From NCBI GenBank assembly GCA_051251855.1, contig JBPOGI010000003.1:541241-605240 (forward strand): DNA of 64,000 bases. Direction: 5' to 3'. A program made the position numbers and the translations under genes. This document shows, in pieces, positions 35,991-51,031 of this stretch. Each line of letters begins with the position of its first letter. Position 1 is the stretch's first letter. The notes below the pieces were generated by a model that saw only the letters and a list, made by a program, of their open reading frames with translations, did no database searches and was not told where the DNA came from. The stretch is from Roseibacillus sp. GTDB lineage: Bacteria > Verrucomicrobiota > Verrucomicrobiia > Verrucomicrobiales > Akkermansiaceae.

Positions 35991-36299
35991 AGGGTGAGGG
36001 GATGAAATTGTGACGAGGAGAGCAAGGGGGAACCTAGGGGTGAGTCTGCAAATTGCATGTCGCTGCGAATGGAGGCCGTTCAATCTGCACTTGAATGTGG
36101 TGAGAGGGGGGCAGAGGGCGAAGGTGAGAGGCCTGAAAGGGCTAGAGAATCATTACTCACAATGGTTTTGGCTCAGCAACTGCCGGAGAGAACTCAACAA
36201 TATGGCGAGATCTCGAAAAATCTTTTATCTCCAGCTTCAGGGTCTATCAGCCCCGGAAGAGCGCGTCGAGGACTCCAAAACGAGAACCAACCAATCAGC

Positions 36300-37418
36300 A
36301 TGAAACTTCCTTCTTCAAATAAAACCTCCACTCCGAGTGTCATCGACCAACCGACCGAGAACGGGGTCTTTCATAGAACTCTCCTTCGACTGGAGCGAAT
36401 CATTCATAGAATTCGAGGTGAACGTGTGCCCGATGAGAAATCGTTTGTTCGGTGCTTCCACGGGTATGGAATGGGTGAGGAAGTTATTCTCAGGGGGCGC
36501 GTCGAGCGTAAAAAAGAGCTTCGTCCCTCTGATGTCGACGACTCCAAACGGCGAAACTTTCTCAATATGGCCGCTCACTTTTTTACTAAAGAGATCCCTT
36601 ATGCTCGCGTGGAAGGCCGAGTCGGAGAAAAGACTTTTGAAACAGTCTGTGACGGCGAGGGCTACTTTTCCTATTGTCTGAACTTAGGCGAGACGTCATT
36701 GGCTGAGCCAGAGGTAGAATTTACCGCTCACGTTCTCCTTAGTGAAGATTCGGAAGAGGCCACCACTGTTTCCACAAAAGGAACGCTCTCGATATGTCCT
36801 GACTCGGCTCAAAGAATCATCATTAGCGACATCGATGATACTGTGATGGAGAGCGGTGCAGCTAAGCTCTGGCAACTCCTGCGCAATACTCTGTTAGAAA
36901 ACGTCCATACTCGGAGAGTCTTCCCCGGTGTTTCAAGATTCTACCGCGACCTTCAGGGAGGGGCTTGTGGGGGAGAAGCCAATCCGATCTTTTACGTGAC
37001 CAGTTCTCCTTGGAACTTGCGGGACTTCATCTTGAAGGTCTTCGAATTGCGTGGGACTCCTTCAGGACCTCTTTTCATGACCGATTGGGGAATCGACGAA
37101 ACTAAGGTTCTCAAGGCGGGGCACTCCGATCACAAACTCGAAGCGATCCGACATCTTCTCGATTTCCACCAGCCCTTGCCCGCTGTTCTGATTGGTGACA
37201 GTGGCGAAAAGGATCCTGAAATTTACTCTCAAGTCGTTGCCGATTATCCGGGAAGAATTAGCGCCATCTTTATTCGCCACGTTTCAGATTCTGCCCGCGA
37301 AAAAGAGGTGACTCGTCTGGGGGAGGTTTGCCAAGCAAGCGAGGTTCCCTTTCATCTCGTGAGCGACACCGATCAGGCGGAGGCTCTTTCTCGTTCTCTA
37401 GGCCTCGTGGCGAGGTAG
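36300..37418 (+). CDS. App1-family phosphatidate phosphatase (DUF2183)
   Basis: IISDIDDT, FYVTSSPWNL, LIGDSGEKDPEIY, IFIR; ATG 36300. Confidence 0.88.
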   Translation: MKLPSSNKTSTPSVIDQPTENGVFHRTLLRLERIIHRIRGERVPDEKSFVRCFHGYGMGEEVILRGRVERKKELRPSDVDDSKRRNFLNMAAHFFTKEIPYARVEGRVGEKTFETVCDGEGYFSYCLNLGETSLAEPEVEFTAHVLLSEDSEEATTVSTKGTLSICPDSAQRIIISDIDDTVMESGAAKLWQLLRNTLLENVHTRRVFPGVSRFYRDLQGGACGGEANPIFYVTSSPWNLRDFILKVFELRGTPSGPLFMTDWGIDETKVLKAGHSDHKLEAIRHLLDFHQPLPAVLIGDSGEKDPEIYSQVVADYPGRISAIFIRHVSDSAREKEVTRLGEVCQASEVPFHLVSDTDQAEALSRSLGLVAR

Positions 37419-37430
37419 ATCAGAAGGCGC

Positions 37431-39353
37431 TTATTTACTGGTATTGACCAAAGCGAGGACGGTCATGGAAGATGCCAACATGAGCAGAGCTGCGGCGACG
37501 GGGTGGAGGAGGCCAGTGGAGGCAAGGGTGATGCCGATGGCATTGTAGCCAAGGCTGAAAGCGAGGAGGCGGGTGAGTCGCTGGCGAGTGGAGCGGGCGA
37601 GGTCGATGGCGACGGGCAGGATGGCGAGGTCGTCGTGGCTGAGGGTGGCGTGAGCGGTGGAGGCCGCGGCTTGGGAGCCGGAGCTAAGCGCGATTCCAAC
37701 GTGGGCGGTGCACAGGGCTTGGGTGTCGTTAAGCCCATCGCCGAGATAGAGGGTTTTGTGTCCTTTTTCTTGTTCGGAATGAATGATGTCCGCTTTCTGA
37801 ATGGTGGTGAGCCCGGTGCGGGCATCGAGGAGCTGACGATAGGATTCGGGGCAGGAAGTGTCGCCGGTGAGGAGTTGTAGGCGCAGATTGCGATTGGCGA
37901 GGTCGGTAAGGGTCTGCAGGGACGAGTCGCGGGGTGATTCGCTGAGGTAGGCGGTGGCTACGGGAACGCCGTCGAGGATGAGGTGAAGAGTGCGGGTGGT
38001 GTCTTCGGTGGCCTGGCCAGTGGTCTCGGTGAGGAGTTGATGGTTGCCGAGGAGGAGGCTGTGCGCCTTTCCTTTCCAAGTGAAGGTGGCTCGAATGCCG
38101 CGAGCAGGGAGGGGGTGAATCTTGAGGTCGGGGAATTTGGCAGGCTCTTCGAGTTTCCAGAATGGGCGTGCTACGGGATGGGTGGACTGTCGTTGAATGG
38201 CGGCCAACCAGGAAGTGAGTTCGGCGGGAGCGGCAGCTGTTAGAGAGAGTTTGTCGAGAGTGAGGCGGGGATGGGAGAGGGTGCCGGTTTTGTCAAATGC
38301 GACGGTGTCGATGGTGGCAAGGCGCTCGGCGAGGTCGGGTTGATGGGGGATGAGACCGAGAAGGCGAAAGTTGAGGAGGGCCTTGCGGGCTGCGAGCGGA
38401 ATGGCCAGTCCAAGCGCGCAGGGGCAGGCGACGATGGTGACTGCGAGGGCGTTGAAGAGGGCCTGCGAAGGGTTGTGGAAAAGGAAGGTCCAGACCGCGG
38501 CGGTGAGGAGGGTGATAGCAATGACGGTGGGGACGAAGTAGGTGAGAATGCGTTGCGCGAGATTCTCAGCCGGAGTCGGTGGGGTGTTTTCGCAGGCGGC
38601 CAAGAGGCGGTCGAGTTCGCGGTTTTTCCCCGAAGAGGTGGTGGTGAGGTCGATGGTGCCGTCGAGGACTTTCGAGCCTGCGAGGAGAGAGTCGCCGGGA
38701 CTTTTAGCTGCGGGAAAGGGCTCGCCTGTATGGGCAAGCTCTTCCACGAAGGCAGAGCCCGATGCGATGATGCCATCGGCAGGGATGAGTTCGCCGGGGG
38801 CGATGCGGAGGATTTGGTCGGGCTGGATCTCAGAGGTAGGAAGGGCGCGGGTTCCTCTTTCTTCCACAAGAGTGGCCGTAGTGGCGAGGCCGGGAATATG
38901 TTGGGCGAGGTCGGTGGCCTTTTGAGTCTGATTGTGAAGAACGAGTTGACCGAGGTGGTAGATGGCGAGGAGGATCAGAACGACTTCGTAGTAGATGTGG
39001 CCGATGCCAGTGAAGGAGGAATAGAGGGAAGCCGCATACGCTCCCGCAAGGCCGAGGAGGTAGAGATGCTCGAGGGTGAGGCGAGGAACGAGGGCGTTTT
39101 TTAGAATGGGCCAGGCCAGAAAAAGAAGACCAGCCCCTGTGATGGCTGCAAGAACAGTGTGGAGGATGGTGCGGGCGGGCTCGTCGGGTGGATCGAGGTT
39201 GATGGCCAGCGAAAGATACATGCTGAGTCCTGCCAGTAAGATGGAGAGACCCAATCTTAGCCAGCGTAGGAGCGGGAAAGAAGGGCTCGTCGGGGTGGTT
39301 GAACAGCAAGCGGGTTCAACCTTCTTGGGGGCAGCGGAACAGCAACAGGACAT
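37431..39353 (-). CDS. ccoI: P1B Cu-type ATPase, CcoI/FixI-like
   Basis: TGE, CPC, FDKTGT, HP, GDGLND, YN and MxxSS; last gene of the cco cluster; Cys-rich N-terminus. Confidence 0.8.
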   Translation of the reverse strand: MSCCCSAAPKKVEPACCSTTPTSPSFPLLRWLRLGLSILLAGLSMYLSLAINLDPPDEPARTILHTVLAAITGAGLLFLAWPILKNALVPRLTLEHLYLLGLAGAYAASLYSSFTGIGHIYYEVVLILLAIYHLGQLVLHNQTQKATDLAQHIPGLATTATLVEERGTRALPTSEIQPDQILRIAPGELIPADGIIASGSAFVEELAHTGEPFPAAKSPGDSLLAGSKVLDGTIDLTTTSSGKNRELDRLLAACENTPPTPAENLAQRILTYFVPTVIAITLLTAAVWTFLFHNPSQALFNALAVTIVACPCALGLAIPLAARKALLNFRLLGLIPHQPDLAERLATIDTVAFDKTGTLSHPRLTLDKLSLTAAAPAELTSWLAAIQRQSTHPVARPFWKLEEPAKFPDLKIHPLPARGIRATFTWKGKAHSLLLGNHQLLTETTGQATEDTTRTLHLILDGVPVATAYLSESPRDSSLQTLTDLANRNLRLQLLTGDTSCPESYRQLLDARTGLTTIQKADIIHSEQEKGHKTLYLGDGLNDTQALCTAHVGIALSSGSQAAASTAHATLSHDDLAILPVAIDLARSTRQRLTRLLAFSLGYNAIGITLASTGLLHPVAAALLMLASSMTVLALVNTSK

Positions 39354-39356
39354 CAC

Positions 39357-40004
39357 TTAAAGATTGTCAAGATCGGCTTGGGTCCAGGGGGCGTGACCTT
39401 CGAATTCGCCACGAAGAGATTGCACGGTTTCAAGTTCAACCGGGGGAGCGTCATTGCCCCAGCTGGCGCGGATATAGGTCAGGACGTCAGCGATTTGGCG
39501 GTCATTGAGGGTCGCCCCTTGGGGAGGCATGACGCTATTCCAAGACTGCCCATTGACGGTGATTTCTCCCATCAAGCCATGGAGGACGAGGAGAGCGAGA
39601 CGCTTTTCATCGCCTTGGACCCAATCGGAATCTGCGAGGGGAGGAAAGGCGCCCGGGAGACCTTTGCCATCGGGTTGGTGACAGGTTGAACAGACCAAGT
39701 TGTAGACCGTTGCACCCTCGGCGACCGCGTCACGGGCTTGAGGAGCAGCGTCTGCGATGGACTCTTCTTTGGGAAGTTGAGTGGCGGAGACGCCTTCGAT
39801 GTATTCGTCCCAGCGGAAGCCGCCAGAAGCGACGAGAAGATACCAAATCGCCCACATCGTGAGCGGAGCGTAGATGAGATGTTTGAGCCACCAAGGAAGG
39901 CGTCGATTGAGTTCATGAGGCTCGGCGTTTTCGCGCCAAATTTGTCCATGCACCTCGCGGACATTGAGGTCCTCGCCGGGTTCGTTACCAGGGGTGTTTT
40001 TCAT
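39357..40004 (-). CDS. monoheme cytochrome c, CcoP-like subunit
   Basis: N-terminal E.NRRLPWWL + TM; single CSTCH; Met ligand in VMPP. Confidence 0.8.
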   Translation of the reverse strand: MKNTPGNEPGEDLNVREVHGQIWRENAEPHELNRRLPWWLKHLIYAPLTMWAIWYLLVASGGFRWDEYIEGVSATQLPKEESIADAAPQARDAVAEGATVYNLVCSTCHQPDGKGLPGAFPPLADSDWVQGDEKRLALLVLHGLMGEITVNGQSWNSVMPPQGATLNDRQIADVLTYIRASWGNDAPPVELETVQSLRGEFEGHAPWTQADLDNL

Positions 40005-40009
40005 CGGGC

Positions 40010-40651
40010 TTACTTTTCGGATTCAAGGCGGGCTTTGGCGGCTTCCGGCACTTCGTAGGCTGAGAGCTTGAGAGATTGCAGGTAGGCCACGAGAGCGAGA
40101 GCGTCCTGCGTGGGGATGACCTCCTGCCCAGCGGGGGGAGCGAAGGCTTCCCCGAGATTGAGAGCGTTCTCCGAGGGGCCCGAGGTGGGGACCGGCTGAG
40201 TTTTGAATAAGAAACGGAAGGGCGGCATGTTCGAGCCCTTGGATGTGATCTGAGGATCGTAGAGATGGAGCAGGTGCCAAGTCTCGGAAGGATTGCGCAC
40301 GCCGATATTGGCAAGGTCGGGTCCAGTGCGCATCGTACCCATCTGGGCGATCCCGTGGTTCATGTAGTCTCGGGCCACGGTGCGGCGCTCGCCCCAACCG
40401 CGCTCCAGGTCGGTGCGCGAACGGGCGGGGTGGACCTGTTGTGAATGGCAGTAGATGCAACCGTTGGCGATGTAGACGTTACGACCTTGCTTCTCCAAAG
40501 TGCTGAGGAGAGGAGGAATCATTTCACCGGTTTTGGGGTCTTCGACTTGCTCGAAGTTTCCGAGTCCCCAGACCGGCATGATGACGAGCCCGCACCAGGC
40601 GGAGAGAAAGGTCAGCATGAAGCCAATAAAGATGTAGCGGAATTTGTTCAT
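40010..40651 (-). CDS. ccoO: cbb3-type cytochrome c oxidase subunit II
   Basis: GR.VYI.NGCIYCHSQQV, GTMRTGPDL, WH..HL..P, SNMP; ATGA-coupled to ccoN. Confidence 0.92.
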   Translation of the reverse strand: MNKFRYIFIGFMLTFLSAWCGLVIMPVWGLGNFEQVEDPKTGEMIPPLLSTLEKQGRNVYIANGCIYCHSQQVHPARSRTDLERGWGERRTVARDYMNHGIAQMGTMRTGPDLANIGVRNPSETWHLLHLYDPQITSKGSNMPPFRFLFKTQPVPTSGPSENALNLGEAFAPPAGQEVIPTQDALALVAYLQSLKLSAYEVPEAAKARLESEK

Positions 40652-42087
40652 GAGTTGGCGGAGGAAGGTTTGCGTTTGGTGAAAAGGGTGGGCTCGGTGG
40701 CATCCTTGCGGTGAGCGACGAGCATCCAGACGAAGGAGATGGCGAAGCAAAGGTGGCCAAAGGTCATCAGCATTCCGGCATGAGTTCGACTTTTCAGATA
40801 CGGGATGGTGAGTTGAACAATCTCAAGGAAGGGGGTGGTTTCCTTATTGAGTTCGAGGCCTTGCAGCCATCCTCCATAGCTGAGGACGGTCCAATAGAGA
40901 ATGATGCCAATAGCGCAGGGCCAAAAGTGCAGCCGGATGAGCCAGCGCGAAGGCCACTCACGCTCGAGGAGTCGTGGCATCATGTAGTAGATGGAACCGA
41001 AAAAGGTCATGGAGGCAAAGGCGTAGGCTCCGAGGTGGGCGTGCGCGATGGTGTAGTGAGTGAAGTGGCTAATGTGATTGACCGCGCGAATGGCCATGAG
41101 TGACCCTTGGAATGAGACGAGGGTGTAGCTCATCGCTCCAAAGACTACGAAACGGAGGGTCGGGGAGTAGATGAGCTTTTTAAAGTGCCCCACCATGGTG
41201 AAGTGGTGATTGATAGCGACGGTGATCACGGGCACGAACATCATCACGCTGGCGACCACGGAGGCGGTGATGAGCCAAGCGGGATAAGGGCCGCCAATGA
41301 GGTGGTGCATCCCGTTCCACGCATAGAAAAAGGCGAGGGTCCAAAAGCCGATCGCGGAGAGATAGTAGGAGTGGATGGGTTTGCCGATGATTTTGGGAAT
41401 CAGGTAGTAAGCCGCACCAAGTCCAATGGGAGTGAACCAGAGACCGAGGGCATTGTGGGCAAACCACCAGTTGATGGGAGGTTGCGCTGGCGCTTGCACG
41501 GGGGCGAGAACGAGCAGGCCGTGGGCGGTGAAGAACAACATGGGAAACCAAAAGAAGGCGGCCATGATATACCACTGCGAAATGTAAATGTGGCCTGGTT
41601 CCCGTCGTCGGATGAGGTTAACGGCGGCGAGCATCACGAAGGTGAAAGAGACGAGGAGAAAGGGGGCTGCGTAGGTGGGATACTCCAGCCATTCAACCGC
41701 AGTGGAATCCCCGCGTAGAATGCCCCAGGTGCCGACCGCGTTACCAACGTTCCAGAGAATGGCCGCAAGAGTCAGGGAACGGCTGTCTTGGATGGGAGCG
41801 CGACACAGTCTGGAAAGAATCCAAAGGCCGATTCCGATGCCTGCAGTGGAGAGCCATCCGTAGGCCACGGTGTTGAGGTGGGCAGGTCGGACACGACCAA
41901 AGGTGAGCCAAGGATTGTTGGCGAGAAATTCCGGATCGTGGAGCTTCACGGACGCCGCGATGGCGAGGGCGGAACCCAAGAGGAGCCAAAAGATGGAGGT
42001 GCCGATAAAGACACCACACGGCCAGCGCGCGGCTCGGTCGATCTCCAGCCTTTGTTGGCGCGAATGTTCGAGGTTGTCTTGGTTCAT
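40648..42087 (-). CDS. ccoN: cbb3-type cytochrome c oxidase subunit I
   Basis: FGRVRPAHLN, WWFAHNALG, FYAWNGMHH (C-family Tyr), HFTHYTIAHAH. Confidence 0.93.
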   Translation of the reverse strand: MNQDNLEHSRQQRLEIDRAARWPCGVFIGTSIFWLLLGSALAIAASVKLHDPEFLANNPWLTFGRVRPAHLNTVAYGWLSTAGIGIGLWILSRLCRAPIQDSRSLTLAAILWNVGNAVGTWGILRGDSTAVEWLEYPTYAAPFLLVSFTFVMLAAVNLIRRREPGHIYISQWYIMAAFFWFPMLFFTAHGLLVLAPVQAPAQPPINWWFAHNALGLWFTPIGLGAAYYLIPKIIGKPIHSYYLSAIGFWTLAFFYAWNGMHHLIGGPYPAWLITASVVASVMMFVPVITVAINHHFTMVGHFKKLIYSPTLRFVVFGAMSYTLVSFQGSLMAIRAVNHISHFTHYTIAHAHLGAYAFASMTFFGSIYYMMPRLLEREWPSRWLIRLHFWPCAIGIILYWTVLSYGGWLQGLELNKETTPFLEIVQLTIPYLKSRTHAGMLMTFGHLCFAISFVWMLVAHRKDATEPTLFTKRKPSSANS

Positions 42088-42281
42088 GAGTGAGTGTGTT
42101 GGGAATGGGAGAGAGGCGTATCCGTGGGTTGGCCGATGGGTTCGTCTTCGTCGAAGATGACGCGGGAGGCGTCCTCCAGATTTTCGAATTGCTTGTTAGA
42201 GGCCGCCCAGCAAAAGGCTCCGACGGTGAGAACAGCGAGAGCGATCATGACAACGAGGATGATGAGTGAGGCGGCGAGCAT
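42084..42281 (-). CDS. ccoS: cbb3 oxidase maturation protein
   Basis: TM then F.WA...QFENLEDASRVIFDED. Confidence 0.88.
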   Translation of the reverse strand: MLAASLIILVVMIALAVLTVGAFCWAASNKQFENLEDASRVIFDEDEPIGQPTDTPLSHSQHTHS

Positions 42282-42325
42282 AATAGAAAATCGTGATGAT
42301 TAAGGGAGAGGAGGGCGTTTTCGTC

Positions 42326-42988
42326 CTAGCTTAGCGTACGTTTGCAAAAATACCAATCGGTGTAGTCATGACCTTCCTCAGCACGCTTCTCTGCTTCTTC
42401 GTAGGTGGCTGGTGGACTTACGATTACGGGATCGCCGGGCTGCCAATCTTCGGGGGTAGCGATCCCACTTTGGCTGCTGGTGGTCTGGAGCGCCTGCAAG
42501 AGCCGGACAAATTCTTTGATGCTGCGGCCATTGCTCATGGGGTAGTAGACCATCGCCCGGAGGTGACCTTCGGGGTCGATGAGGAAGGTGGCGCGCACGG
42601 CGGAAGTATCGTCGGCTCCGGGTTGAATCATACCGTAAGCATGGGCGACCTTCATGGAGAGGTCGTCAATGATAGGAAAGGGAATGCGCACGCCGAAGTT
42701 CGTCTCGATAGAGCGCATCCAGGCGATGTGCGAGTAGGTGCTGTCGATGGAGAGTCCTAGCAGGTCACAGTTCAGTTCCTGAAATTGGTCGTGCGCTTTG
42801 GCAAAGGCCATAAACTCGGTGGTGCAGACGGGAGTGAAATCTGCTGGGTGTGAAAAGAGAACGAGCCAGCGACCCTTGTAGTCGTCAAGCGACCGTGGTC
42901 CATGAGTGGTCTGGGCGTTGAAGGCGGGGGCGGGTTCATTCAGACGGGGGAACTGAACGGGTGGGGATGAAGGTTCTGGAGTCGTCAT
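42326..42988 (-). CDS. peroxiredoxin, Prx6 subfamily
   Basis: FSHPADFTPVCTTEF; C-terminal DWYFC. Confidence 0.93.
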   Translation of the reverse strand: MTTPEPSSPPVQFPRLNEPAPAFNAQTTHGPRSLDDYKGRWLVLFSHPADFTPVCTTEFMAFAKAHDQFQELNCDLLGLSIDSTYSHIAWMRSIETNFGVRIPFPIIDDLSMKVAHAYGMIQPGADDTSAVRATFLIDPEGHLRAMVYYPMSNGRSIKEFVRLLQALQTTSSQSGIATPEDWQPGDPVIVSPPATYEEAEKRAEEGHDYTDWYFCKRTLS

Positions 42989-43025
42989 TGTTTGTTTGAA
43001 TTAGGATTGTTAGAGTCGAGAAGGA

Positions 43026-44651
43026 TTAAGAGAGCTGCAAGTGGGCTCCGCCAATGATGGAGTGGGCTTCGAAACCGTTGTTTTGCAGGATGCGGGCGGC
43101 GAAGTAACTGGTCTTTCCCATTTGGCAGATGGTGTAGACGGGCTTGCTTTTGTCCAACTCGTCGAGTCGGCTACGGAGAGTGGGGAGCGGGATGTTCTTG
43201 GCTCCGGGGACGGGCTGGCTGGCAGCCTTGGCCGCGGGCCTAACGTCGATGATTTGTTCTCCGTTGTTAGGAATCTCGTAGGTGGGAAGGAGGGAGCCGT
43301 CGCGCATGTTGCAGGCCGCGAAGCCAGCGATGTTGACGGGGTCTTTGGCGGAGCCGAAGGGGGGAGCGTAGGTGAGTTCGAGATGGCAGAGGTCGTCGAT
43401 GGTCATGCGGGCGCGCAAGGCGGTGGCGAGGATGTCGATGCGCTTGTCGATGCCGTCTTTGCCGACGGCTTGGGCACCGAGGAGCTGACCGGTTTCGGGA
43501 GACCAGAGGATCTTGAGCTTGATGGTTTCCGCCCCGGGAAAGTATCCGGCGTGGGAGTCGGCATTGATGGTGACGGTCTCGTAGGGGACTTCCTTGTGCT
43601 TGAGATAGCGTTCGCCGTGACCGGTGACGGCGGCCACTTGGTCAAAGACTCGCACGATGGCGGTGCCGAGGCTACCGGGATAGGGGAGGGCCTTCTCGCC
43701 TTGAAAAATATGGTCGGCGATGGTGCGGCCTTGTCGGTTGGCTGGGCCGCCGAGGGGAAGGGGGCGAAGCTCGTTGAGGAGGGGGTCGTGGGTCTCGACC
43801 GCATCGCCGGCGGCATAGATATCGGGATCGTTGGTTTGTTGGTGGGGGCTGACTTGAATGTGTCCGCGGGGACCGAGATCGAGTCCGGCAGCTTCCGCGA
43901 GTTGGGATTCGGGACGGACGCCAATGGAGAGAATGACGAGGTCGGTGAGGACGGTTTTTCCGGAGTTGAAAGTGGCAAGGATTCCGCTTCCGCTTTCGCT
44001 TTCTTCAAAAGAGATGACTTGTTCGCCGGTGTGCACGGTCACCCCGTGGGCGGTTAGTTCGTTTTCAAGGTCGCGGGCGAGTTCGGGATCAATGGGAGCG
44101 AGGACTTGGGGTGCCAGTTCGACGAGGGTGATCGCGAGACCTTTGTGGCGAAGTTGTTCCGCCATTTCGAGACCGATGAATCCAGCACCCACGACGAGGG
44201 CGGTCTTCGCCTGCGCGACTTCCTCGCCGATTCGATCCATGTCTTGCAAGGTGCGCAAGGTATGGACGGAGGGGAGGTCGATTCCGGGGAGCGGCGGGCG
44301 AAGGGGGGAGGCACCGGGGGCTAATACGAGTTTATCGTAGGAGAGGGTTTCTTCCTCGTTGGTTTCGAGGTTCTTGAGATGAATGGTCTTGTTGGCACGG
44401 TCAATGGCGAGAGCCTCGGTGCGGGTGCGGACATTGAGGTTGAGAAGAGTGGAGAGAGACTCTGGTGTTTGCACCGCGAGGTCGCTGCGGTTGGGGATTT
44501 CGCCACCGAGGTGATAGGGGAGGCCGCAGTTGGCAAAGGAGACATCGTAGCCTCGCTCGATGATGGTGATAGTAGCGGTTTCGGAATGGCGACGGGCGCG
44601 GGCTGCCGCTGAGGCTCCGCCGGCGACTCCGCCGATGATAACAATGTTCAT
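43026..44651 (-). CDS. CoA-disulfide/persulfide reductase with C-terminal rhodanese (CoADR-RHD/Npsr-like)
   Basis: GGVAGG, SFANCGLPY, GAGFIGLE, YAPPF, rhodanese loop CQMGKTS. Confidence 0.92.
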   Translation of the reverse strand: MNIVIIGGVAGGASAAARARRHSETATITIIERGYDVSFANCGLPYHLGGEIPNRSDLAVQTPESLSTLLNLNVRTRTEALAIDRANKTIHLKNLETNEEETLSYDKLVLAPGASPLRPPLPGIDLPSVHTLRTLQDMDRIGEEVAQAKTALVVGAGFIGLEMAEQLRHKGLAITLVELAPQVLAPIDPELARDLENELTAHGVTVHTGEQVISFEESESGSGILATFNSGKTVLTDLVILSIGVRPESQLAEAAGLDLGPRGHIQVSPHQQTNDPDIYAAGDAVETHDPLLNELRPLPLGGPANRQGRTIADHIFQGEKALPYPGSLGTAIVRVFDQVAAVTGHGERYLKHKEVPYETVTINADSHAGYFPGAETIKLKILWSPETGQLLGAQAVGKDGIDKRIDILATALRARMTIDDLCHLELTYAPPFGSAKDPVNIAGFAACNMRDGSLLPTYEIPNNGEQIIDVRPAAKAASQPVPGAKNIPLPTLRSRLDELDKSKPVYTICQMGKTSYFAARILQNNGFEAHSIIGGAHLQLS

Positions 44652-44693
44652 AGTAAAGTGGGTGAGCCTCTGAATCCAGTCTGCTTCTTTTTG

Positions 44694-45341
44694 TTAGGGT
44701 AGGCTGACTTCGACGCGAAAAACTCCTCGCAGGTCGCCTTCTTTAAACCCAATCGCTTGGTCGTCCGGGTAGGCTTCACTGATTTTGGCCGCCAGAGCGG
44801 GAGAAAAGGTGGAGGGGTCGCCATGACACTTGAGGCAAATCGCCTCGGTGAGAATGGGTTTGTAAAAGAGGGCTTGGTTGGCGCCGTGCCGAACGATTTC
44901 ATTTTCGGGCAGGCTTTGGCCCTCCGCGAGGAGAGTCTGCCAGCGAGAAAGGACCTCTTGGTCATCGGTGCCGGGGGCGTTAGCGGGATTGCGGACCATC
45001 AAAGCGGTGCGGGTGACGGTCGCTGCGGGGAGGTCTTGGCTAGTGGAAGCGGTGAGAGGTTGCGCAACCTGTTGACAGACGTGGAGAGCGTTCTCAGGTC
45101 CGCCGGATTGGAGAGCGGCCTTGAGTTGTCCCCCCAAGGATTTCATGAGGGCCAGAGAAGCTTCAGTTCCAATCTCGGCAGCCGCTTCCGCTTGTTGGGT
45201 CGTCAATGCGGGTGGATCGGTTAGAGAGGCTTCTATTTTGGATTCGGCCTGCTGGCGGCAACTTACTGAGACTGAAAAAACAAGGGCAAAGGCGACTAGG
45301 TAGAGTCCAGTTGATGTCTTGTTGAAAGGGCGAAGTCTCAT
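44694..45341 (-). CDS. DUF3365/Tll0287-like c-type heme lipoprotein
   Basis: Lipobox SVSC; LHVCQQVA, RNPANAP, CLKCHG, YPDDQAIGFKEGDLRG. Confidence 0.88.
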   Translation of the reverse strand: MRLRPFNKTSTGLYLVAFALVFSVSVSCRQQAESKIEASLTDPPALTTQQAEAAAEIGTEASLALMKSLGGQLKAALQSGGPENALHVCQQVAQPLTASTSQDLPAATVTRTALMVRNPANAPGTDDQEVLSRWQTLLAEGQSLPENEIVRHGANQALFYKPILTEAICLKCHGDPSTFSPALAAKISEAYPDDQAIGFKEGDLRGVFRVEVSLP

Positions 45342-45371
45342 CACGGGGAGATAAAAGCCATGCTTAGTAAA

Positions 45372-45414
45372 ATTGCAATAATAATCTATTGCAATATTCT
45401 TAAATAAGAATATT
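45372..45414. promoter_or_regulatory. two adjacent perfect inverted repeats in the divergent promoter
   Basis: ATTGCAATA-N6-TATTGCAAT (45372-45395) and AATATTCTTA-N2-TAAGAATATT (45393-45414), the latter containing ATTC-N8-GAAT. Confidence 0.8.
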
Positions 45415-45484
45415 TAAGAGGTGGAAGAGAGAGAAGTTAGAAAGTTTTTCTAGCGACTTCAAGAAACACAAATCGACCGAAACC

Positions 45485-46918
45485 ATGTATTTAAAACAAA
45501 TTACGGACGCATCCCTTGCTCAGAATGCCTACTTGATTGGATGCCAGCGCACAGGCGAGGCTATTGTCGTGGACCCTGAAAGAGACGTGGACCGCTATCT
45601 TGAATTGGCCGAAGCTGAGGGTCTTCGTATTGTGGCGGTCGCGGACACACACATTCATGCCGACTACTTGAGCGGGGTGCGGGAATTCGTCGAGCACCAT
45701 GGGGCCAAGGCCTATGTGACCGCTGAAGGGGGCCCCGATTGGCAAATGGAATGGGCTAAGGGGGATTCCCGCACTCGGGAAATTCGGAATGGAGATTCTA
45801 TCAAAATCGGTAACATCGAGCTCACCGTCTTATTGACGCCAGGTCATACCCCCGAGCATGTGAGTTTTCTTCTCACAGACCACGGAGGTGGGGCGAGCGA
45901 GCCGATTGCGATCTTGAGTGGAGACTTTATCTTCGTCGGTGACGTGGGTCGTCCCGACTTGTTAGAAAGCGCGGCGGGTCAGGCCGGGGCGATGGAGGCA
46001 TCTGCGAAAGTGCTCTACGATAGCTTGCGCCAGACAGAAGGCTTACCAGATTTCTTGCAGGTCCTCCCCGCGCACGGTGCTGGAAGTGCCTGCGGCAAAG
46101 CGTTGGGCGCGATTCCCACCAGTGTCTTGGGATATGAGCGGAAGTTCAATGGCGCTTTGCACGAGGCCTTGACCGAAAGCCGGGAAGACTTTGTCGACAG
46201 TATTTTGAGCGGTCAACCCGAGCCCCCTGTTTATTTCGCGCGTATGAAGCGCGACAACCGGGACGGTCAGGCTTTGCTGCCAGACGGCAAGCTACCTCAG
46301 CCCGAATGGATGGCTGCGACTGATTTTGCGGCTTTCGTTGCTGATGATAAGAACGTGGTGCTGGACCTGCGGACCGATAAGCCGGCCTTCATGGCCAAGC
46401 ATGTGAAAGGTTCGCTTTGGGCTCCCTTACAGGGCACTGAGTTTCCCGAGATGGCGGGTTCCTTTGTGGAGGAAAAGACGCCCATCGTGCTGCTTGTCAA
46501 CAAGGCCGGCGAGGTCGAGGAAGCAGTTCGCCAACTGGTGCGGATTGGCTACGACGAGGTGGTAGGTTGGCTTCCGGTTGAGGAGGCTTTGGCTAGCAGC
46601 GTGCCTACGGAGTCTATTGAGCGCATCACCACTGCGGAGCTGCCTGAAAGCCTCAGTGCCAAACCGGGTTTTGTTCTCGATGTGCGGCGGGCAGCGGAAT
46701 TCGCAGAGGGTCACTTCGAAGGCGCGAAGCAGATTGCGCACACCCGCTTGATGACTCGCACCGAAGAATTACCGAAAGACGAGGTCATTTATGTGCATTG
46801 TCGTTCCGGGGCTCGCGCGGCTAAGGCGGCCTCGTTTCTAGCCAAGAAGGGCTTCGATGTCGTTCATGTTGATGGGGCGGTGGAGGCTCTGCTCGGTCAA
46901 ACTACTTGTTGCGCCTAA
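45485..46918 (+). CDS. MBL-fold persulfide dioxygenase fused to two rhodanese domains (CstB-like)
   Basis: THIHADY, TPGHTPEH, GDVGRPDL, HGAGSACGK, C-terminal HCRSGARA. Confidence 0.9.
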   Translation: MYLKQITDASLAQNAYLIGCQRTGEAIVVDPERDVDRYLELAEAEGLRIVAVADTHIHADYLSGVREFVEHHGAKAYVTAEGGPDWQMEWAKGDSRTREIRNGDSIKIGNIELTVLLTPGHTPEHVSFLLTDHGGGASEPIAILSGDFIFVGDVGRPDLLESAAGQAGAMEASAKVLYDSLRQTEGLPDFLQVLPAHGAGSACGKALGAIPTSVLGYERKFNGALHEALTESREDFVDSILSGQPEPPVYFARMKRDNRDGQALLPDGKLPQPEWMAATDFAAFVADDKNVVLDLRTDKPAFMAKHVKGSLWAPLQGTEFPEMAGSFVEEKTPIVLLVNKAGEVEEAVRQLVRIGYDEVVGWLPVEEALASSVPTESIERITTAELPESLSAKPGFVLDVRRAAEFAEGHFEGAKQIAHTRLMTRTEELPKDEVIYVHCRSGARAAKAASFLAKKGFDVVHVDGAVEALLGQTTCCA

Positions 46919-46921
46919 ACG

Positions 46922-48106
46922 ATGAGTGCTCCCAAATTACTCATTGTTGGCGGCGGGACAGCCGGCATTAGCGTTGCAGCGAGGGTTCGGCTACGGATGC
47001 CGCAGGTCGAGGTGACGCTGTTGGAGCCTTCCGACAAGCACTTCTATCAGCCGCTGTGGACTCTCGTGGGAGGAGGGGTTTTTCCCAAGGAAAAGTCTAT
47101 GCGCGACGAGGCCAGCGTTGTCCCCGATGGCGTGACTTGGAAGAAAGAGGCGGCTGAAAAAATTGACCCCGCTGCCAAGACCGTAGTGACCAAGGGAGGG
47201 GAAGTTCTCTCGTATGATTACCTTGTGGTTGCGACTGGGCTGGTCTGCAATTGGTCGGCCATTCCTGGTTTGGCGGATTCGCTGGGCACAAAGGGAGTCT
47301 GTTCGAACTACTCCTATCAGCATGTCGATTACACTTGGGAGACGATTAAAAGCTTTAAGGGCGGAAAGGCGCTATTTACCCATCCTGCCGGAGCGGTGAA
47401 GTGTGGGGGAGCGCCCCAGAAAATCATGTGGCTCGCTGAGGACTGGTGGAGACGGGAAGGTGCGCGCTCGAAGATGGATCTTCAGTTCTACATCGCGCTG
47501 CCCAATCTCTTTGCGGTCGAAAAGTATCGCAAGACTCTCGAAGACGAGGTGGCGCGTCGGGACATTCATTGCTCGTTCGAAAAGAACTTGGTTTCTATCG
47601 ACGCTGACAAAAAAGAAGCGGTCTTTGCCGACCTCGCAGGTGGAGAAGAGGAACGGGTGAGCTATGATATGATTCACGTCACCCCCCCCATGGGACCTCC
47701 TCCGTTCTTGAAAGGCTCAGGTCTCGTGAATGCCGATGGTTGGGTTGATGTTGATCAGTATACCCTGCGTCATGGCACCTACGGAGAGGTGTTTGGAATT
47801 GGTGATGTCTCCAGCTTGCCGACCTCGAAGACCGGAGCCGCGATTCGCAAGCAAGCGCCTGTGCTGGTGGATAACCTGGAGTCTGTGATGAATGGTCAGG
47901 AGCCTGTTGCCAAGTATGATGGCTATACCTCCTGCCCTATCGTGACCGCTCGAGGGCGACTGGTGCTTGCCGAGTTCGGCTACGACAAAGAGCCTGCCGA
48001 AACCTTTCCCATCGACCAGTCCAAGCCGCGATACAGCATGTATCTGCTGAAGAAGTGGGCTCTTCCGGTCTTTTATTGGAATGGGATGTTGAAGGGGAAA
48101 ATGTAA
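46922..48106 (+). CDS. sqr: sulfide:quinone oxidoreductase (type II-like)
   Basis: GGGTAG, YQPLWTLVGGG, CSNY, KCGGAPQK, YDGYTSCP, LAEF. Confidence 0.9.
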   Translation: MSAPKLLIVGGGTAGISVAARVRLRMPQVEVTLLEPSDKHFYQPLWTLVGGGVFPKEKSMRDEASVVPDGVTWKKEAAEKIDPAAKTVVTKGGEVLSYDYLVVATGLVCNWSAIPGLADSLGTKGVCSNYSYQHVDYTWETIKSFKGGKALFTHPAGAVKCGGAPQKIMWLAEDWWRREGARSKMDLQFYIALPNLFAVEKYRKTLEDEVARRDIHCSFEKNLVSIDADKKEAVFADLAGGEEERVSYDMIHVTPPMGPPPFLKGSGLVNADGWVDVDQYTLRHGTYGEVFGIGDVSSLPTSKTGAAIRKQAPVLVDNLESVMNGQEPVAKYDGYTSCPIVTARGRLVLAEFGYDKEPAETFPIDQSKPRYSMYLLKKWALPVFYWNGMLKGKM

Positions 48107-48114
48107 CTGCCTGA

Positions 48115-48855
48115 ATGACCATTTTTGCCATATTGGGGGCTCTCCTCATCGGACTAACGCTGGGACTCACCGGAGCGGGAGGAAGCATTATTACGCTGCC
48201 GGTGCTGGTTTACCTCGCCAAGATTCCGCCCATGGAAGCGGTCCCGATGAGCCTTCTGATTGTGGGGGCGGCATCCCTCACTGGGGCGATTCAGCGACTT
48301 TCTAACAGAGAGATTTGTTTGCCGACTGCGGGAGTCTTTGCCGTTTCCGGGATGGTAGGGGCGGTGGGGGGCGCGCGTTTGACGCACTTGGTTTCTCCTC
48401 AAATTTTGATGCTGATTTTTGCAGCCTTGATGTTGTTCGTGGCGATTCAGATGTTTCGCCCGAAACACGAATTGGCGGAAGCGACTGAGAAGAGCTGGTT
48501 CTCCAAAGCGGCCGCAGGTCTAGGAGTTGGCATCTTGACCGGTTTTATCGGAGTGGGGGGAGGCTTTCTTCTGGTGCCCGCTTTGCTGAAGTTCGGAGGC
48601 TTGAAGATGAAGCAGGCGGTGGGATCCTCCCTTGCGATCATCTTTTTCAATTGTATCGCGGGATTTCTCTCGCATCTCGGACAGACGAGCCTGAATTGGT
48701 CTCTGTCGGGAATTTATGCCGGCCTGGCTGTGGTCGGGGTTCTGGTTGGGACCCACTTTTCGACCAAGTTACCCGCGCCCGTCTTGCGGCAGGGTTTTGC
48801 CGCCATGGTGGTGGTCACTGGCGGTTTCGTTCTTTGGAAAAATCTCGGTAATTAG
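48115..48855 (+). CDS. TauE/SafE sulfite/sulfur-compound exporter
   Basis: GLTGAGGSI..P.L and GFIGVGGGFL.VP repeats. Confidence 0.92.
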   Translation: MTIFAILGALLIGLTLGLTGAGGSIITLPVLVYLAKIPPMEAVPMSLLIVGAASLTGAIQRLSNREICLPTAGVFAVSGMVGAVGGARLTHLVSPQILMLIFAALMLFVAIQMFRPKHELAEATEKSWFSKAAAGLGVGILTGFIGVGGGFLLVPALLKFGGLKMKQAVGSSLAIIFFNCIAGFLSHLGQTSLNWSLSGIYAGLAVVGVLVGTHFSTKLPAPVLRQGFAAMVVVTGGFVLWKNLGN

Positions 48856-48871
48856 GTGTTGTTGTTCAAAT

Positions 48872-48912
48872 AAAAGCACCCCCGCGAGATCGAGATCGCG
48901 GGGGTGCATTTT
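48872..48912. terminator. bidirectional terminator between convergent genes
   Basis: AAAA-GCACCCCCGCGA...TCGCGGGGGTGC-ATTTT. Confidence 0.8.
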
Positions 48913-48941
48913 CCAGTTTTCCAGTTCTTCCTGGAAGTTCT

Positions 48942-49490
48942 CTAATTGGTCACACAGCAAGAAGCCTTAGCGGGACTATCGGCCTTGTTCCAAGGCATCT
49001 TGGCAAGGAGAAGGGCTAGTCCGCACCATCCAGTCGACCCAGCCATCGTGAGCCCTGCTCCGAAGAAGGCCGAGCCAAAGGCGAAGGCGGGATTCACAAA
49101 ATAGGCCAGGAGAGAGAAGGTGAGAACACCGAGACCAATCGCGAGTTGAACCTGACGCATGAGAGGCAGGACTTTGCGCTCGGTGCGATTGAGGGGGAGG
49201 CCGGCTTGTTCCCAAGCGCCGACTCCACCTTGGAGAATCGTGAGGTCGCCAAATCCTTTTTCAGCGAGAATCTGATGGGCCCGCTCTGCACGTTTCCCAG
49301 ATTGGCACACGAGGTAATACTTCTTCGAGGGGTCGAGTTGGCCAGATTGATTGGTCAGTTCGTCGACGGGGATGTGTCGAGAGCCGTCGATGTGCTTTTC
49401 TTCGAATTCTACAGGTGTGCGGACATCGAGAGCTATCGCGCTATCTTCTTTGAGGAGATTGTGAATGTCGTTAGAATGGAGAGTTTTCAT
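48942..49490 (-). CDS. membrane rhodanese (YgaP-like, rhodanese + DUF2892)
   Basis: DVRTPVEF, CQSGKR, RQVQL..G, GWCGLA.LLAKMPWN; ATG 49490. Confidence 0.9.
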   Translation of the reverse strand: MKTLHSNDIHNLLKEDSAIALDVRTPVEFEEKHIDGSRHIPVDELTNQSGQLDPSKKYYLVCQSGKRAERAHQILAEKGFGDLTILQGGVGAWEQAGLPLNRTERKVLPLMRQVQLAIGLGVLTFSLLAYFVNPAFAFGSAFFGAGLTMAGSTGWCGLALLLAKMPWNKADSPAKASCCVTN

Positions 49491-49491
49491 T

Positions 49492-50019
49492 TTATTGTTT
49501 CTTTTGAGAGTTGGTTTCTTTCGCCTTTTTGGCGGCTTGTTTTTCGAGATCGACGCTATCGAGATGCTCGCGTTCGACTGAAGCGGATCCCTCCTTTGCA
49601 AAGGTGCTGACAATGCGGGCGTGGTTCTGGGCTACTTTGATGGCTCGCGGGGTCTTTCCTTTGATGATGACTGCGAGTCCCTTTTCAATTGGAGAGATGG
49701 TGGCGTCAATATCATCGTAGTGTTCGACCATCTCGGCGTAGGCCGGATCCCAGCGCCGCACCATGGCTCCAGAGTCGAGCCGCTTTTTCATATAGGCGAC
49801 ATGGGCATGGAGCTTTTTCACCAGTTCTTTGTTCTCGCTGGTGGTAGTGGCAGTGTAGCCGGTCTCGGTTTTGCTGACCTTGCGGACCAACTCTTTGTGA
49901 TGCTCCGCCATGTAGTGAATGAGTTCTCGCTGCTCTTGAGGCAGGGGACCACGGAAGGACTCGGCCGGGGCGCTGATGTTTCCAGCAAGGAGCAGGGGGA
50001 TGAGGAGGGTTGCTTTCAT
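49492..50019 (-). CDS. secreted His-rich hypothetical protein with internal duplication
   Basis: Signal peptide; two halves M.EH...G.....S/T....K....H. Confidence 0.8.
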   Translation of the reverse strand: MKATLLIPLLLAGNISAPAESFRGPLPQEQRELIHYMAEHHKELVRKVSKTETGYTATTTSENKELVKKLHAHVAYMKKRLDSGAMVRRWDPAYAEMVEHYDDIDATISPIEKGLAVIIKGKTPRAIKVAQNHARIVSTFAKEGSASVEREHLDSVDLEKQAAKKAKETNSQKKQ

Positions 50020-50050
50020 AATGAAATTTAGTTGTTGAGTAGTTTTCTTA

Positions 50051-50068
50051 TATTCTCATAAAGTAATA
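50051..50068. promoter_or_regulatory. operator copy 2
   Basis: TATTC-TCATAAAG-TAATA upstream of the 50019 start. Confidence 0.65.
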
Positions 50069-50133
50069 AAAGCAACCGAAAAGATTGCAAGCGGTCCGTT
50101 AAAACCCCTCGCGATTGGAAAAGCTCTGAGACC

Positions 50134-50476
50134 ATGGCAGCTAAAAAATCTTAAATTCGTTTTCTCAATCGGGCTTTCATTGTTGGCGCCGCCACTTGGC
50201 GCGCAGCATCAGACCAGCGACTTGACCTTACCCTATGTCGAGGGGGCGTTGCCCTACACGTTGGAGATTCGGGAAGTCTGGGTAATCACTCCCACAATTA
50301 AAAAATCGTGGCACAAGTCCCTGGAATTGATGGGGGCAAGTGGACTCTCGGGTGAGCAAATCGATAGTCTGTTTGCGGTCAATACCGAGTTCTATCAGGA
50401 TGGGGAAACTCTCGTGATCGTGGGTAGCTATGGTTACTTCGACTTTGCATCCAAGGTCTCGACAAATCCTACTTAG
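50134..50476 (+). pseudogene. frameshifted, truncated remnant of a secreted protein gene
   Basis: ATG 50134 stops after 6 codons; deleting one A from the A6 run (50143-50148) restores signal peptide MAAKNLKFVFSIGLSLLAPPLGA in frame with ORF 50180-50476. Confidence 0.55.
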
Positions 50477-50652
50477 AGAATAAGTGAGCTCGTTTTGGGT
50501 CTGTCAGGTGGATTCTCGGTATGGTTTGCGCTTTGCATCGGCGGGGGAGTGTCGGATAATTACGGAACTGCAGCGTACGCTCAGGATTGGGAAAATCTGG
50601 ATTTGTAATAGAATCTTCGTAAAGAGTTCGGAATATACTTGATTGATTCCAA

Positions 50653-50670
50653 TATTCCGTTAAAAGAATA
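50653..50670. promoter_or_regulatory. operator copy 3 (autoregulatory position)
   Basis: TATTC-CGTTAAAA-GAATA ending 13 bp before the ArsR ATG. Confidence 0.75.
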
Positions 50671-50683
50671 GAGATAATAGAAA

Positions 50684-51031
50684 ATGCCTGCAAAGAAGAA
50701 CAAATCAGTAAAGCTTTCTGACGAGGCGTTGGAGGCCTTGGCTCAGACCTTTCGGCTTCTTGCCGATGAGGTGCGACTTAGCCTTTTGCAAGAATTGAAG
50801 GAGGGCGAGCGCATGGTGGGGGAGCTGGTGGAGGTGACCGGTCATGGGCAGGCGAGTGTGTCCAAGCATCTCAAGGCTCTTTATGAGGGTGGGTTGCTGG
50901 AGAGGCGGAAGGATGGGGTGAAGGTTTACTACGGGGTGAAGGGGGAGTTCGTTTTTTCGCTCTGCAAGATGGTATGCCAGCGGTTGGATGATGAGCAGAA
51001 GGAGAGGGGCCAGATTGAGTTTATGATTTGA
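50684..51031 (+). CDS. ArsR/SmtB-family repressor
   Basis: FRLLADEVRL.LL, VGEL, QASVSKHL..L...GLL.RRKDG.KVYY; C-terminal LCKMVC. Confidence 0.93.
   Translation: MPAKKNKSVKLSDEALEALAQTFRLLADEVRLSLLQELKEGERMVGELVEVTGHGQASVSKHLKALYEGGLLERRKDGVKVYYGVKGEFVFSLCKMVCQRLDDEQKERGQIEFMI

Follow-up and report, generated by a model that had tools for sequence, protein, structure and literature searches.

Why would the genes for a spare oxygen reductase be placed among those that oxidise sulfide and clear persulfides? The question is raised by a 13.6-kb gene cluster (positions 37,431–51,031) in a 64,000-nucleotide stretch of Roseibacillus sp. DNA (GenBank assembly GCA_051251855.1, contig JBPOGI010000003.1, positions 541,241–605,240), referred to here as the window. 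The source genome (G000) is 4.96 Mb and 95% complete. Two arms diverge from one promoter region. The right arm encodes a persulfide dioxygenase (PDO)–rhodanese, a sulfide:quinone oxidoreductase (SQR), together with a TauE exporter; the left arm runs from a DUF3365 heme protein through a coenzyme A (CoA) disulfide/persulfide reductase–rhodanese (cdr) and a peroxiredoxin (prx) into a ccoS–ccoN–ccoO–cytochrome c–ccoI oxidase cassette. On balance, and with moderate confidence, we read the cluster as a single sulfur-stress regulon under the control of a repressor, with a spare oxidase among its members.

A predicted operator shared by the sulfur and oxidase genes

The preliminary description of this DNA had placed the oxidase and SQR in one regulon. 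We find this likely, because a shared operator, tight gene junctions, and the recurrence of arsR and persulfide genes ahead of the cco cassette in relatives all point to it. The operator, a TATTC-N8-GAATA palindrome that had been overlooked, has three perfect copies in the genome, two of them in the island (45395 and 50653); the chance expectation is about 2 per genome and 0.006 in the island. The third copy (C6:295147) sits within a long open reading frame (ORF) at chance level and was not counted as an operator. The box in the divergent promoter is also present in a related genome, G004 (L011), and in a metagenomic contig, X5, all ten of its arm bases are the same and four of the eight spacer bases are changed. 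Where relatives have arsR facing the cassette, the box lies directly ahead of arsR: among the 23 arsR rows compared (two rows were unusable), six match at ten of ten bases and nine at nine or more, versus 10 of 3000 random windows. The box at this place is weaker or different in Chthoniobacterales-type loci. Abutting the operator of the divergent promoter, at 45372–45395 of the window, are two ATTGCAAT palindromes 8 bp apart, kept in G004 as TTGCAA, which may belong to the promoter or form an additional site.

The left arm spans ~7.9 kb (37431–45344), as first described, with successive gaps of 42, 37, 44, -4, -4, 5, and 0 bp, and the two junctions of the right arm measure 3 and 8 bp. The AT-rich divergent promoter was likewise recovered, as a 140-bp spacer of 33% GC against ~54% for the contig. 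No promoter-like or terminator-like site was called in the prx–ccoS spacer, by a scan that is itself weak (6 promoter-like sites versus 5.2 expected), and the sigma-70 scan gave no signal beyond chance. Co-regulation is the best supported step of our reading, and we consider it quite likely.

An ArsR repressor with a helix-5 cysteine pair

The core of the island boxes, ATTC-x8-GAAT, is that given for the SqrR box in the accessible part of a recent report (bioRxiv 10.64898/2026.05.15.721447). The repressor itself is not an SqrR or BigR by its residues. The helix-2 position is Gln36, both C94 and C98 lie in helix 5, all three are invariant in 25/25 aligned homologues, and the protein scores 36 bits against the SqrR/BigR profile NF040642, whose cut-off is 155. 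The accessible part of PMC10054925 defines the known ArsR persulfide sensors (sequence similarity network cluster 4) by a helix-2/helix-5 Cys pair; the SqrR, BigR, and HlyU sensors treated there share with the island an ArsR fold, rhodanese and YgaP neighbours, and the ATTC-x8-GAAT core, whereas the island protein has the invariant helix-5 CxxxC in place of a helix-2 Cys.

Such helix-5 CxxxC ArsRs were found in 33 of 400 phylum genomes. In the 29 loci inspected they mostly face YgaP-type genes with efflux adaptors, or rhodanese–YgaP genes with PDO, CoA disulfide reductase (CoADR), or DUF3365 (six of the neighbour identities are Pfam-confirmed), and a related box is present in 18 of the 29. One family of the class has this ArsR in 23 of 35 genomes (L173–L201), where a small gene of YgaP type and an efflux adaptor lie opposite it and the operator is a strong TATGC-N8-GCATA. 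That reactive sulfur is the inducer of the island regulon seems probable to us.

Layout of the island

Every gene named in the preliminary description was found at its position and orientation (Table 1), with three starts corrected: ccoO most likely begins at ATG 40651, giving 213 residues and an overlap with the ccoN stop; the DUF3365 gene likely begins at ATG 45341, because a related contig alters the GTG; and ygaP begins at 49490.

Table 1. Features of the island, in window coordinates
Feature	Position	Strand	Evidence
CcoI-like P1B ATPase	37431..39356	-	PF00122; TIGR01525 under cut-off
Monoheme cytochrome c, membrane-anchored, in CcoP's place	39357..40004	-	PF00034; one CxxCH
CcoO-like monoheme subunit	40010..40651	-	PF02433; one CxxCH; ATG overlapping ccoN stop
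CcoN, atypical C-family oxidase subunit I	40648..42087	-	PDB 9g6b/8smr alignment, residue table, structure model
CcoS maturation protein	42084..42281	-	PF03597
Peroxiredoxin, 1-Cys/Prx6-type (prx)	42326..42988	-	PF10417; NF009668 over cut-off
CoA disulfide/persulfide reductase–rhodanese fusion (cdr)	43026..44651	-	PDB 3nta, 3icr, 8a56, E<1e-140, full length
DUF3365/Tll0287-like heme c protein, putative lipoprotein signal	44694..45341	-	PF11845; PDB 5b82
Operator palindrome TATTC-N8-GAATA, divergent promoter (predicted ArsR site)	45395..45412	.	arms unchanged in contig X5; also in G004
Persulfide dioxygenase–rhodanese fusion, CstB type (PDO)	45485..46918	+	PDB 3tp9, 3r2u
Sulfide:quinone oxidoreductase, type II-like (SQR)	46922..48106	+	mitochondrial SQR closest among solved structures, E 1.6e-120
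TauE/SafE exporter	48115..48855	+	PF01925
Terminator-like 12-bp hairpin separating convergent tauE and ygaP	48876..48907	.	
Rhodanese–YgaP membrane sulfurtransferase	48942..49490	-	PF00581 + PF11127
Exported protein without family, conserved His/Met	49492..50019	-	
Near-perfect operator (9/10) ahead of the exported protein–ygaP pair	50051..50068	.	
Operator palindrome 13 bp ahead of arsR (predicted autoregulation)	50653..50670	.	
ArsR-family repressor, C94-x3-C98 in helix 5, no helix-2 Cys	50684..51031	+	PF01022

The sulfur enzymes form a cst-type set, with PDO–rhodanese, SQR, and TauE together; the CstR (CsoR-family) or FisR regulator of such operons is absent, ArsR being the only regulator in the island. 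Both catalytic Cys of SQR align with those of mitochondrial SQR, as in a type II-like enzyme, and beyond the top few matches its nearest named relatives are Planctomycetota (56–61% identity). In G004 (L010/L011, G004:C3:298–304 kb) an internal deletion fuses the first ~72 codons of cdr to the last ~20, and cdr has decayed in a similar manner in L017, L103, and contig X5. A DUF442/Blh-phosphatase-like lipoprotein gene with a sulfur-transfer-type domain lies 3' of ccoI in two relatives (L017:14688–15272, L019:14679–15260).

A comparison of GC and of GC at third codon positions (GC3) found no foreign signature. The GC3 of the island genes (0.58–0.72) falls inside the spread shown by six flanking genes (0.50–0.79), so the label 'island' rests on patchy distribution and not on composition. 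The gene flanking the island (36057–37418) encodes an APP1-type phosphatidate phosphatase, has a low GC3 of 0.50, and was found in only one of five congeneric genomes. Ahead of arsR is a 664-bp gap (50020–50683) with a 98-codon ORF (50180–50476) that matched no known family; since relatives have arsR and the operon facing each other directly, this part looks rearranged. The exported protein has 88 homologues, and its H41, H73, M77, and H133 are invariant. No Pfam or other profile family was found for it, the protein itself giving only automatic 'hypothetical' clusters, and its confident structure model gave no fold match over Z 4.8. Its gene is absent from all 129 ccoN loci of relatives described below and has one genomic homologue in 300 phylum genomes, with no island gene adjoining. 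It is probably a late addition to the cluster.

An atypical C-family oxidase

The island oxidase was first described as a cbb3 enzyme. Its membership of the C family stands. Aligned to PDB 9g6b and 8smr, CcoN keeps the six His ligands and the helix-VII cross-link Tyr (H70, H211, Y255, H261, H262, H349, and H351), its model (predicted local distance difference test score 85.7) superimposes on cbb3 CcoN with a template modelling score of 0.83–0.86, above those for nitric oxide reductase (NOR) and ba3, and it is accompanied by a monoheme CcoO partner (PF02433). We reject a NOR identity, because the protein retains the cross-link Tyr and its scores against NORs are far lower than those against cbb3.

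It is not a canonical cbb3, a departure that the preliminary description overlooked. CcoN scores 226 bits against the canonical profile TIGR00780 (cut-off 583), and there is no diheme CcoP: the protein in its place has one CxxCH and scores 50 bits against TIGR00782 (cut-off 180). The conserved Glu near heme b3 and the K-type proton channel have recognised roles in canonical enzymes. Here, Gln327 replaces Glu324 and Gly247 replaces His244 (numbering of 9g6b), so that the channel, which retains its Thr, Tyr, Ser, and Tyr, is incomplete. The canonical CcoNOQP enzymes (PDB 3mk7, 8smr, 9g6b) are alike in fold, in ligands and cross-link Tyr, and in having CcoO, CcoS, and CcoI; they differ from the island in sequence (~27–28% identity), in the diheme CcoP that a single monoheme cytochrome replaces, and in that the island subtype is linked to alternative complex III (ACIII) in other Verrucomicrobiota. 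To judge from its sequence, the island oxidase is a CcoP-less C-family subtype distinct from canonical cbb3. Atypical CcoP-less cbb3 enzymes have reportedly been noted in older phylogenetic papers.

The CcoI gene follows the cytochrome c gene in most stand-alone loci, and its product likely delivers copper to the oxidase. Opitutales-type ACIII-linked intact oxidases have Ile, Leu, Phe, or Thr at the conserved-Glu position (L063–L067, L069, L071–L073, L082, L138, L140, L144), and a ccoN of the intact type is broken into two frames in L049 (L049:10001–11427) and L077.

The respiratory chain around the island

The genome has four COX1-family genes: those of aa3, of a CcoN-like protein in the ACIII operon, of a canonical fused ccoNO with ccoP, and of the island ccoN. 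A housekeeping cbb3 and a quinol:cytochrome c reductase, in the form of ACIII, are thus present; neither bc1 nor a bd oxidase was found in the genome. SQR reduces quinone and a C-family oxidase receives electrons from cytochrome c, so the ACIII encoded elsewhere is required between them, and the earlier notion of a 'self-contained' module has to be given up. We infer that electrons would pass from SQR through quinone and ACIII to the oxidase.

The ACIII-operon paralogue of CcoN lacks the cross-link Tyr and both helix X heme ligands in 21/21 Verrucomicrobiales loci (that of G000, at L006:9175–10668 in G000:C1, and 20 selected matches, L145–L164). It is full length, sits between ACIII and aa3, and misses most metal ligands; the neighbouring CcoO and cytochrome c keep their CxxCH in G000. 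By its residues, it is likely a non-catalytic scaffold mis-annotated as cbb3. Mutual exclusion between the island oxidase and bd proved uninformative (bd in 1 of 7 genomes with island-type ccoN versus 13/248 family genomes outside one bd-rich genus). The single island-ccoN family genome with bd is G308 (G308:C1:2610734; the match covers residues 176–476 only).

Conservation of the arrangement among relatives

We collected 129 ccoN loci of relatives, 68 from genomes and 61 from metagenomes, and built a quick tree of 105 ccoN rows, omitting frameshifted, partial, and duplicate rows. The distant relatives (23 loci from Opitutales, Limisphaerales, and one planctomycete) lie within ACIII operons with intact ligands. 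The closer ones have a stand-alone ccoS–N–O–cytc–I cassette and form a 61-row clade (Shimodaira–Hasegawa-like approximate likelihood ratio test support 100). An arsR or persulfide gene adjoins the cassette in 24 of 88 loci at 57.5% identity or above. After removal of ACIII loci and grouping at 95% DNA identity, 20 of 53 stand-alone clusters have arsR and/or persulfide genes adjoining (one by a partial arsR match), and 6 are too short to score. The cdr of L101 lies 5.9 kb upstream, beyond the cut applied; the weak 'sulfur' labels on L068, L069, and L083 and an SQR-like match in L026 reflect partial similarity of a generic kind and were left out of the count.

The persulfide gene set between arsR or its box and the cassette varies. 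Between cdr or ygaP and ccoS there are 4–17 bp in seven loci (L016, L017, L019, L049, L084, L103, L142) and 140–671 bp in eight others. The linked loci are spread over several separate sublineages of the 61-row clade, a pattern that, as far as the tree goes, fits an old association with repeated loss; repeated gain is also possible.

The juxtaposition of SQR and cco is not unique to this genome. On contig X5 (7,075 bp, macroalgal metagenome) the 5' portion of ccoN stands together with prx, a cdr that carries a deletion, DUF3365, PDO, SQR, TauE, and ygaP, and X6, from the same study, has the same joints; at the level of gene order, the arrangement thus recurs in at least one further organism, known from a single study. 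The small-share marine runs X9 and X11 yielded nothing but short pieces. The first-described pairing of SQR with the oxidase is accordingly real in two places, and yet it is the ArsR/persulfide module that accompanies the oxidase as its conserved partner, as SQR is found in 0 of the 129 loci.

Proposed mechanism and alternative explanations

In the regulon that we favour, ArsR would bind the TATTC-N8-GAATA boxes and be released when reactive sulfur modifies its two conserved Cys, and derepression would switch on sulfide oxidation along with a spare oxygen reductase. SQR would pass sulfide electrons to the quinone pool, and PDO, the rhodaneses, the CoA persulfide reductase, peroxiredoxin, and TauE would remove sulfane sulfur and sulfite. 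Chromosomal ACIII would reoxidise the quinol, and electrons would reach O2 through the island monoheme cytochrome, CcoO, and atypical CcoN, assembled by their own CcoS and CcoI. The oxidase would thus drain the chain while aa3 and the canonical cbb3 are inhibited, which is the job of cytochrome bd in other heterotrophs.

Several observations weigh against this reading. The repressor lacks the Cys pair of the known persulfide sensors, and the box of its family is mostly TATGC-N8-GCATA, so its resemblance to the sqr box here may have arisen by convergence. Neither arsR nor a persulfide gene is present in 27 of the 53 stand-alone clusters, each with at least 2 kb upstream. Beyond the absence of SQR from the ccoN loci, 300 family genomes include 7 with island-type ccoN, 1 with a close SQR (G004), and none with both; G004 has its sulfur arm and box near the same tex gene, with no prx or cco. 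In L018, L087, and L111 arsR persists ahead of cco with the persulfide genes eroded or gone. The rarity of bd in the family outside one genus makes its absence here weak support. The step at which the oxidase tolerates sulfide is the weakest, and doubtful, because heme-copper oxidases including cbb3 are described as sulfide-inhibited in the accessible parts of two reviews (PMC13467558; PMC9774590).

Several of these points would suit a repressor that does control the oxidase and responds to low oxygen or general thiol-redox stress, the oxidase being an extra high-affinity or O2-scavenging enzyme and the sulfur genes a cargo that can be swapped behind a common operator. The arsR–box–cco unit kept where persulfide genes are lost, the internally deleted cdr of G004 and X5, and the sulfur-free majority of stand-alone loci all agree with it, as do hypoxia-linked members in the uncharacterised ArsR clusters 2 and 3 in the accessible part of PMC10054925. 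However, YgaP, rhodanese, PDO, or CoADR genes lie opposite members of the ArsR family also where there is no oxidase, and for low oxygen a canonical cbb3 is already encoded in the genome. We regard this main alternative as possible, though unlikely. A cassette that merely landed beside a sulfur operon and uses its own promoter would explain the many clusters in which it stands alone, its rarity (the 7 of 300 genomes) and patchiness, and the unequal identity to X5 (~95% in the sulfur arm versus 84–87% in the cco arm, ~87% for ccoN), which suggests separate histories. The 4–17-bp gaps to different upstream sulfur genes, the linkage recurring in several sublineages, and the conserved operator arms make such a passenger very improbable. 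Least probable in our estimate is a direct periplasmic route, in which electrons from sulfide or polysulfide would enter the Tll0287-like heme lipoprotein and go on to the monoheme cytochrome and then the oxidase, with quinone and ACIII left out of the path. Tll0287 is said to have a link to sulfide and a low potential. Its CxxCH and upstream Cys align with those of the island protein (PDB 5b82), whose gene comes first in the cco operon here and in L017, L084, and L107, and after it in L037, these four relatives having no SQR. Yet DUF3365 occurs in few clusters only, L085 and L112 have a truncated copy, and G004 retains the gene in the absence of the oxidase; we know of no catalytic activity in the family.

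Relation to known systems

The pairing of SQR with an alternative oxidase under sulfide is already known. In the accessible part of PMC10205796, sulfide induces SQR together with a ba3 oxidase in Methylacidiphilum; M. fumariolicum SolV is, like our organism, a Verrucomicrobium with ACIII, several oxidases, and SQR paired with an alternative heme-copper oxidase. SolV has a type III SQR and a sulfide-insensitive B-family ba3, and what that part reports is co-induction, not a common operon or operator; in the island, by contrast, a C-family oxidase and a type II SQR share one predicted operator. The cst/sqr–pdo–tauE operons (Staphylococcus with CstR, Acinetobacter with FisR) also hold PDO–rhodanese, SQR, and TauE in one operon, and in Acinetobacter cydAB is sulfide-induced along with SQR; their regulators are of CsoR or sigma54 type and the bd oxidase is encoded elsewhere (PMC7315123, accessible part). 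In Hyphomicrobium, loss of the sulfane-sulfur repressors lowers cbb3 transcripts, the opposite sign, according to the part of bioRxiv 10.1101/2025.02.17.638619 that was accessible. PMC13274419 and PMC8780969 contributed no specific point. The gene combination, the oxidase subtype, and the ArsR motif were not found described in open-access PMC and bioRxiv, a scope that leaves subscription papers and supplements aside; what is new is the linkage at the level of the operon, the subtype of oxidase, and the Cys motif of the ArsR.

Carried to its furthest point, the favoured reading would make this the first sulfide-tolerant C-family oxygen reductase, wired to a new ArsR persulfide-sensor class with a helix-5 CxxxC: a sulfide-switched, mobile, intact copy that docks on ACIII in place of poisoned oxidases, with a bd-like role, in Verrucomicrobiales whose ACIII-linked copy has no active site. 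We think this improbable as a whole.

The known escapes from sulfide among oxidases are the bd oxidases and one ba3 enzyme. The locus names a C-family subtype marked by a defined residue change close to heme b3, an ArsR Cys motif, and an exact operator, each of which is separately testable. The findings suggest that 'cbb3' annotations in the phylum span three things, canonical, atypical intact, and ligand-less. They also suggest that sulfide oxidation may occur in heterotrophic Verrucomicrobia of marine and algal habitats, and that a spare oxidase is likely brought into use once sulfide puts the cell's ordinary respiration at risk.

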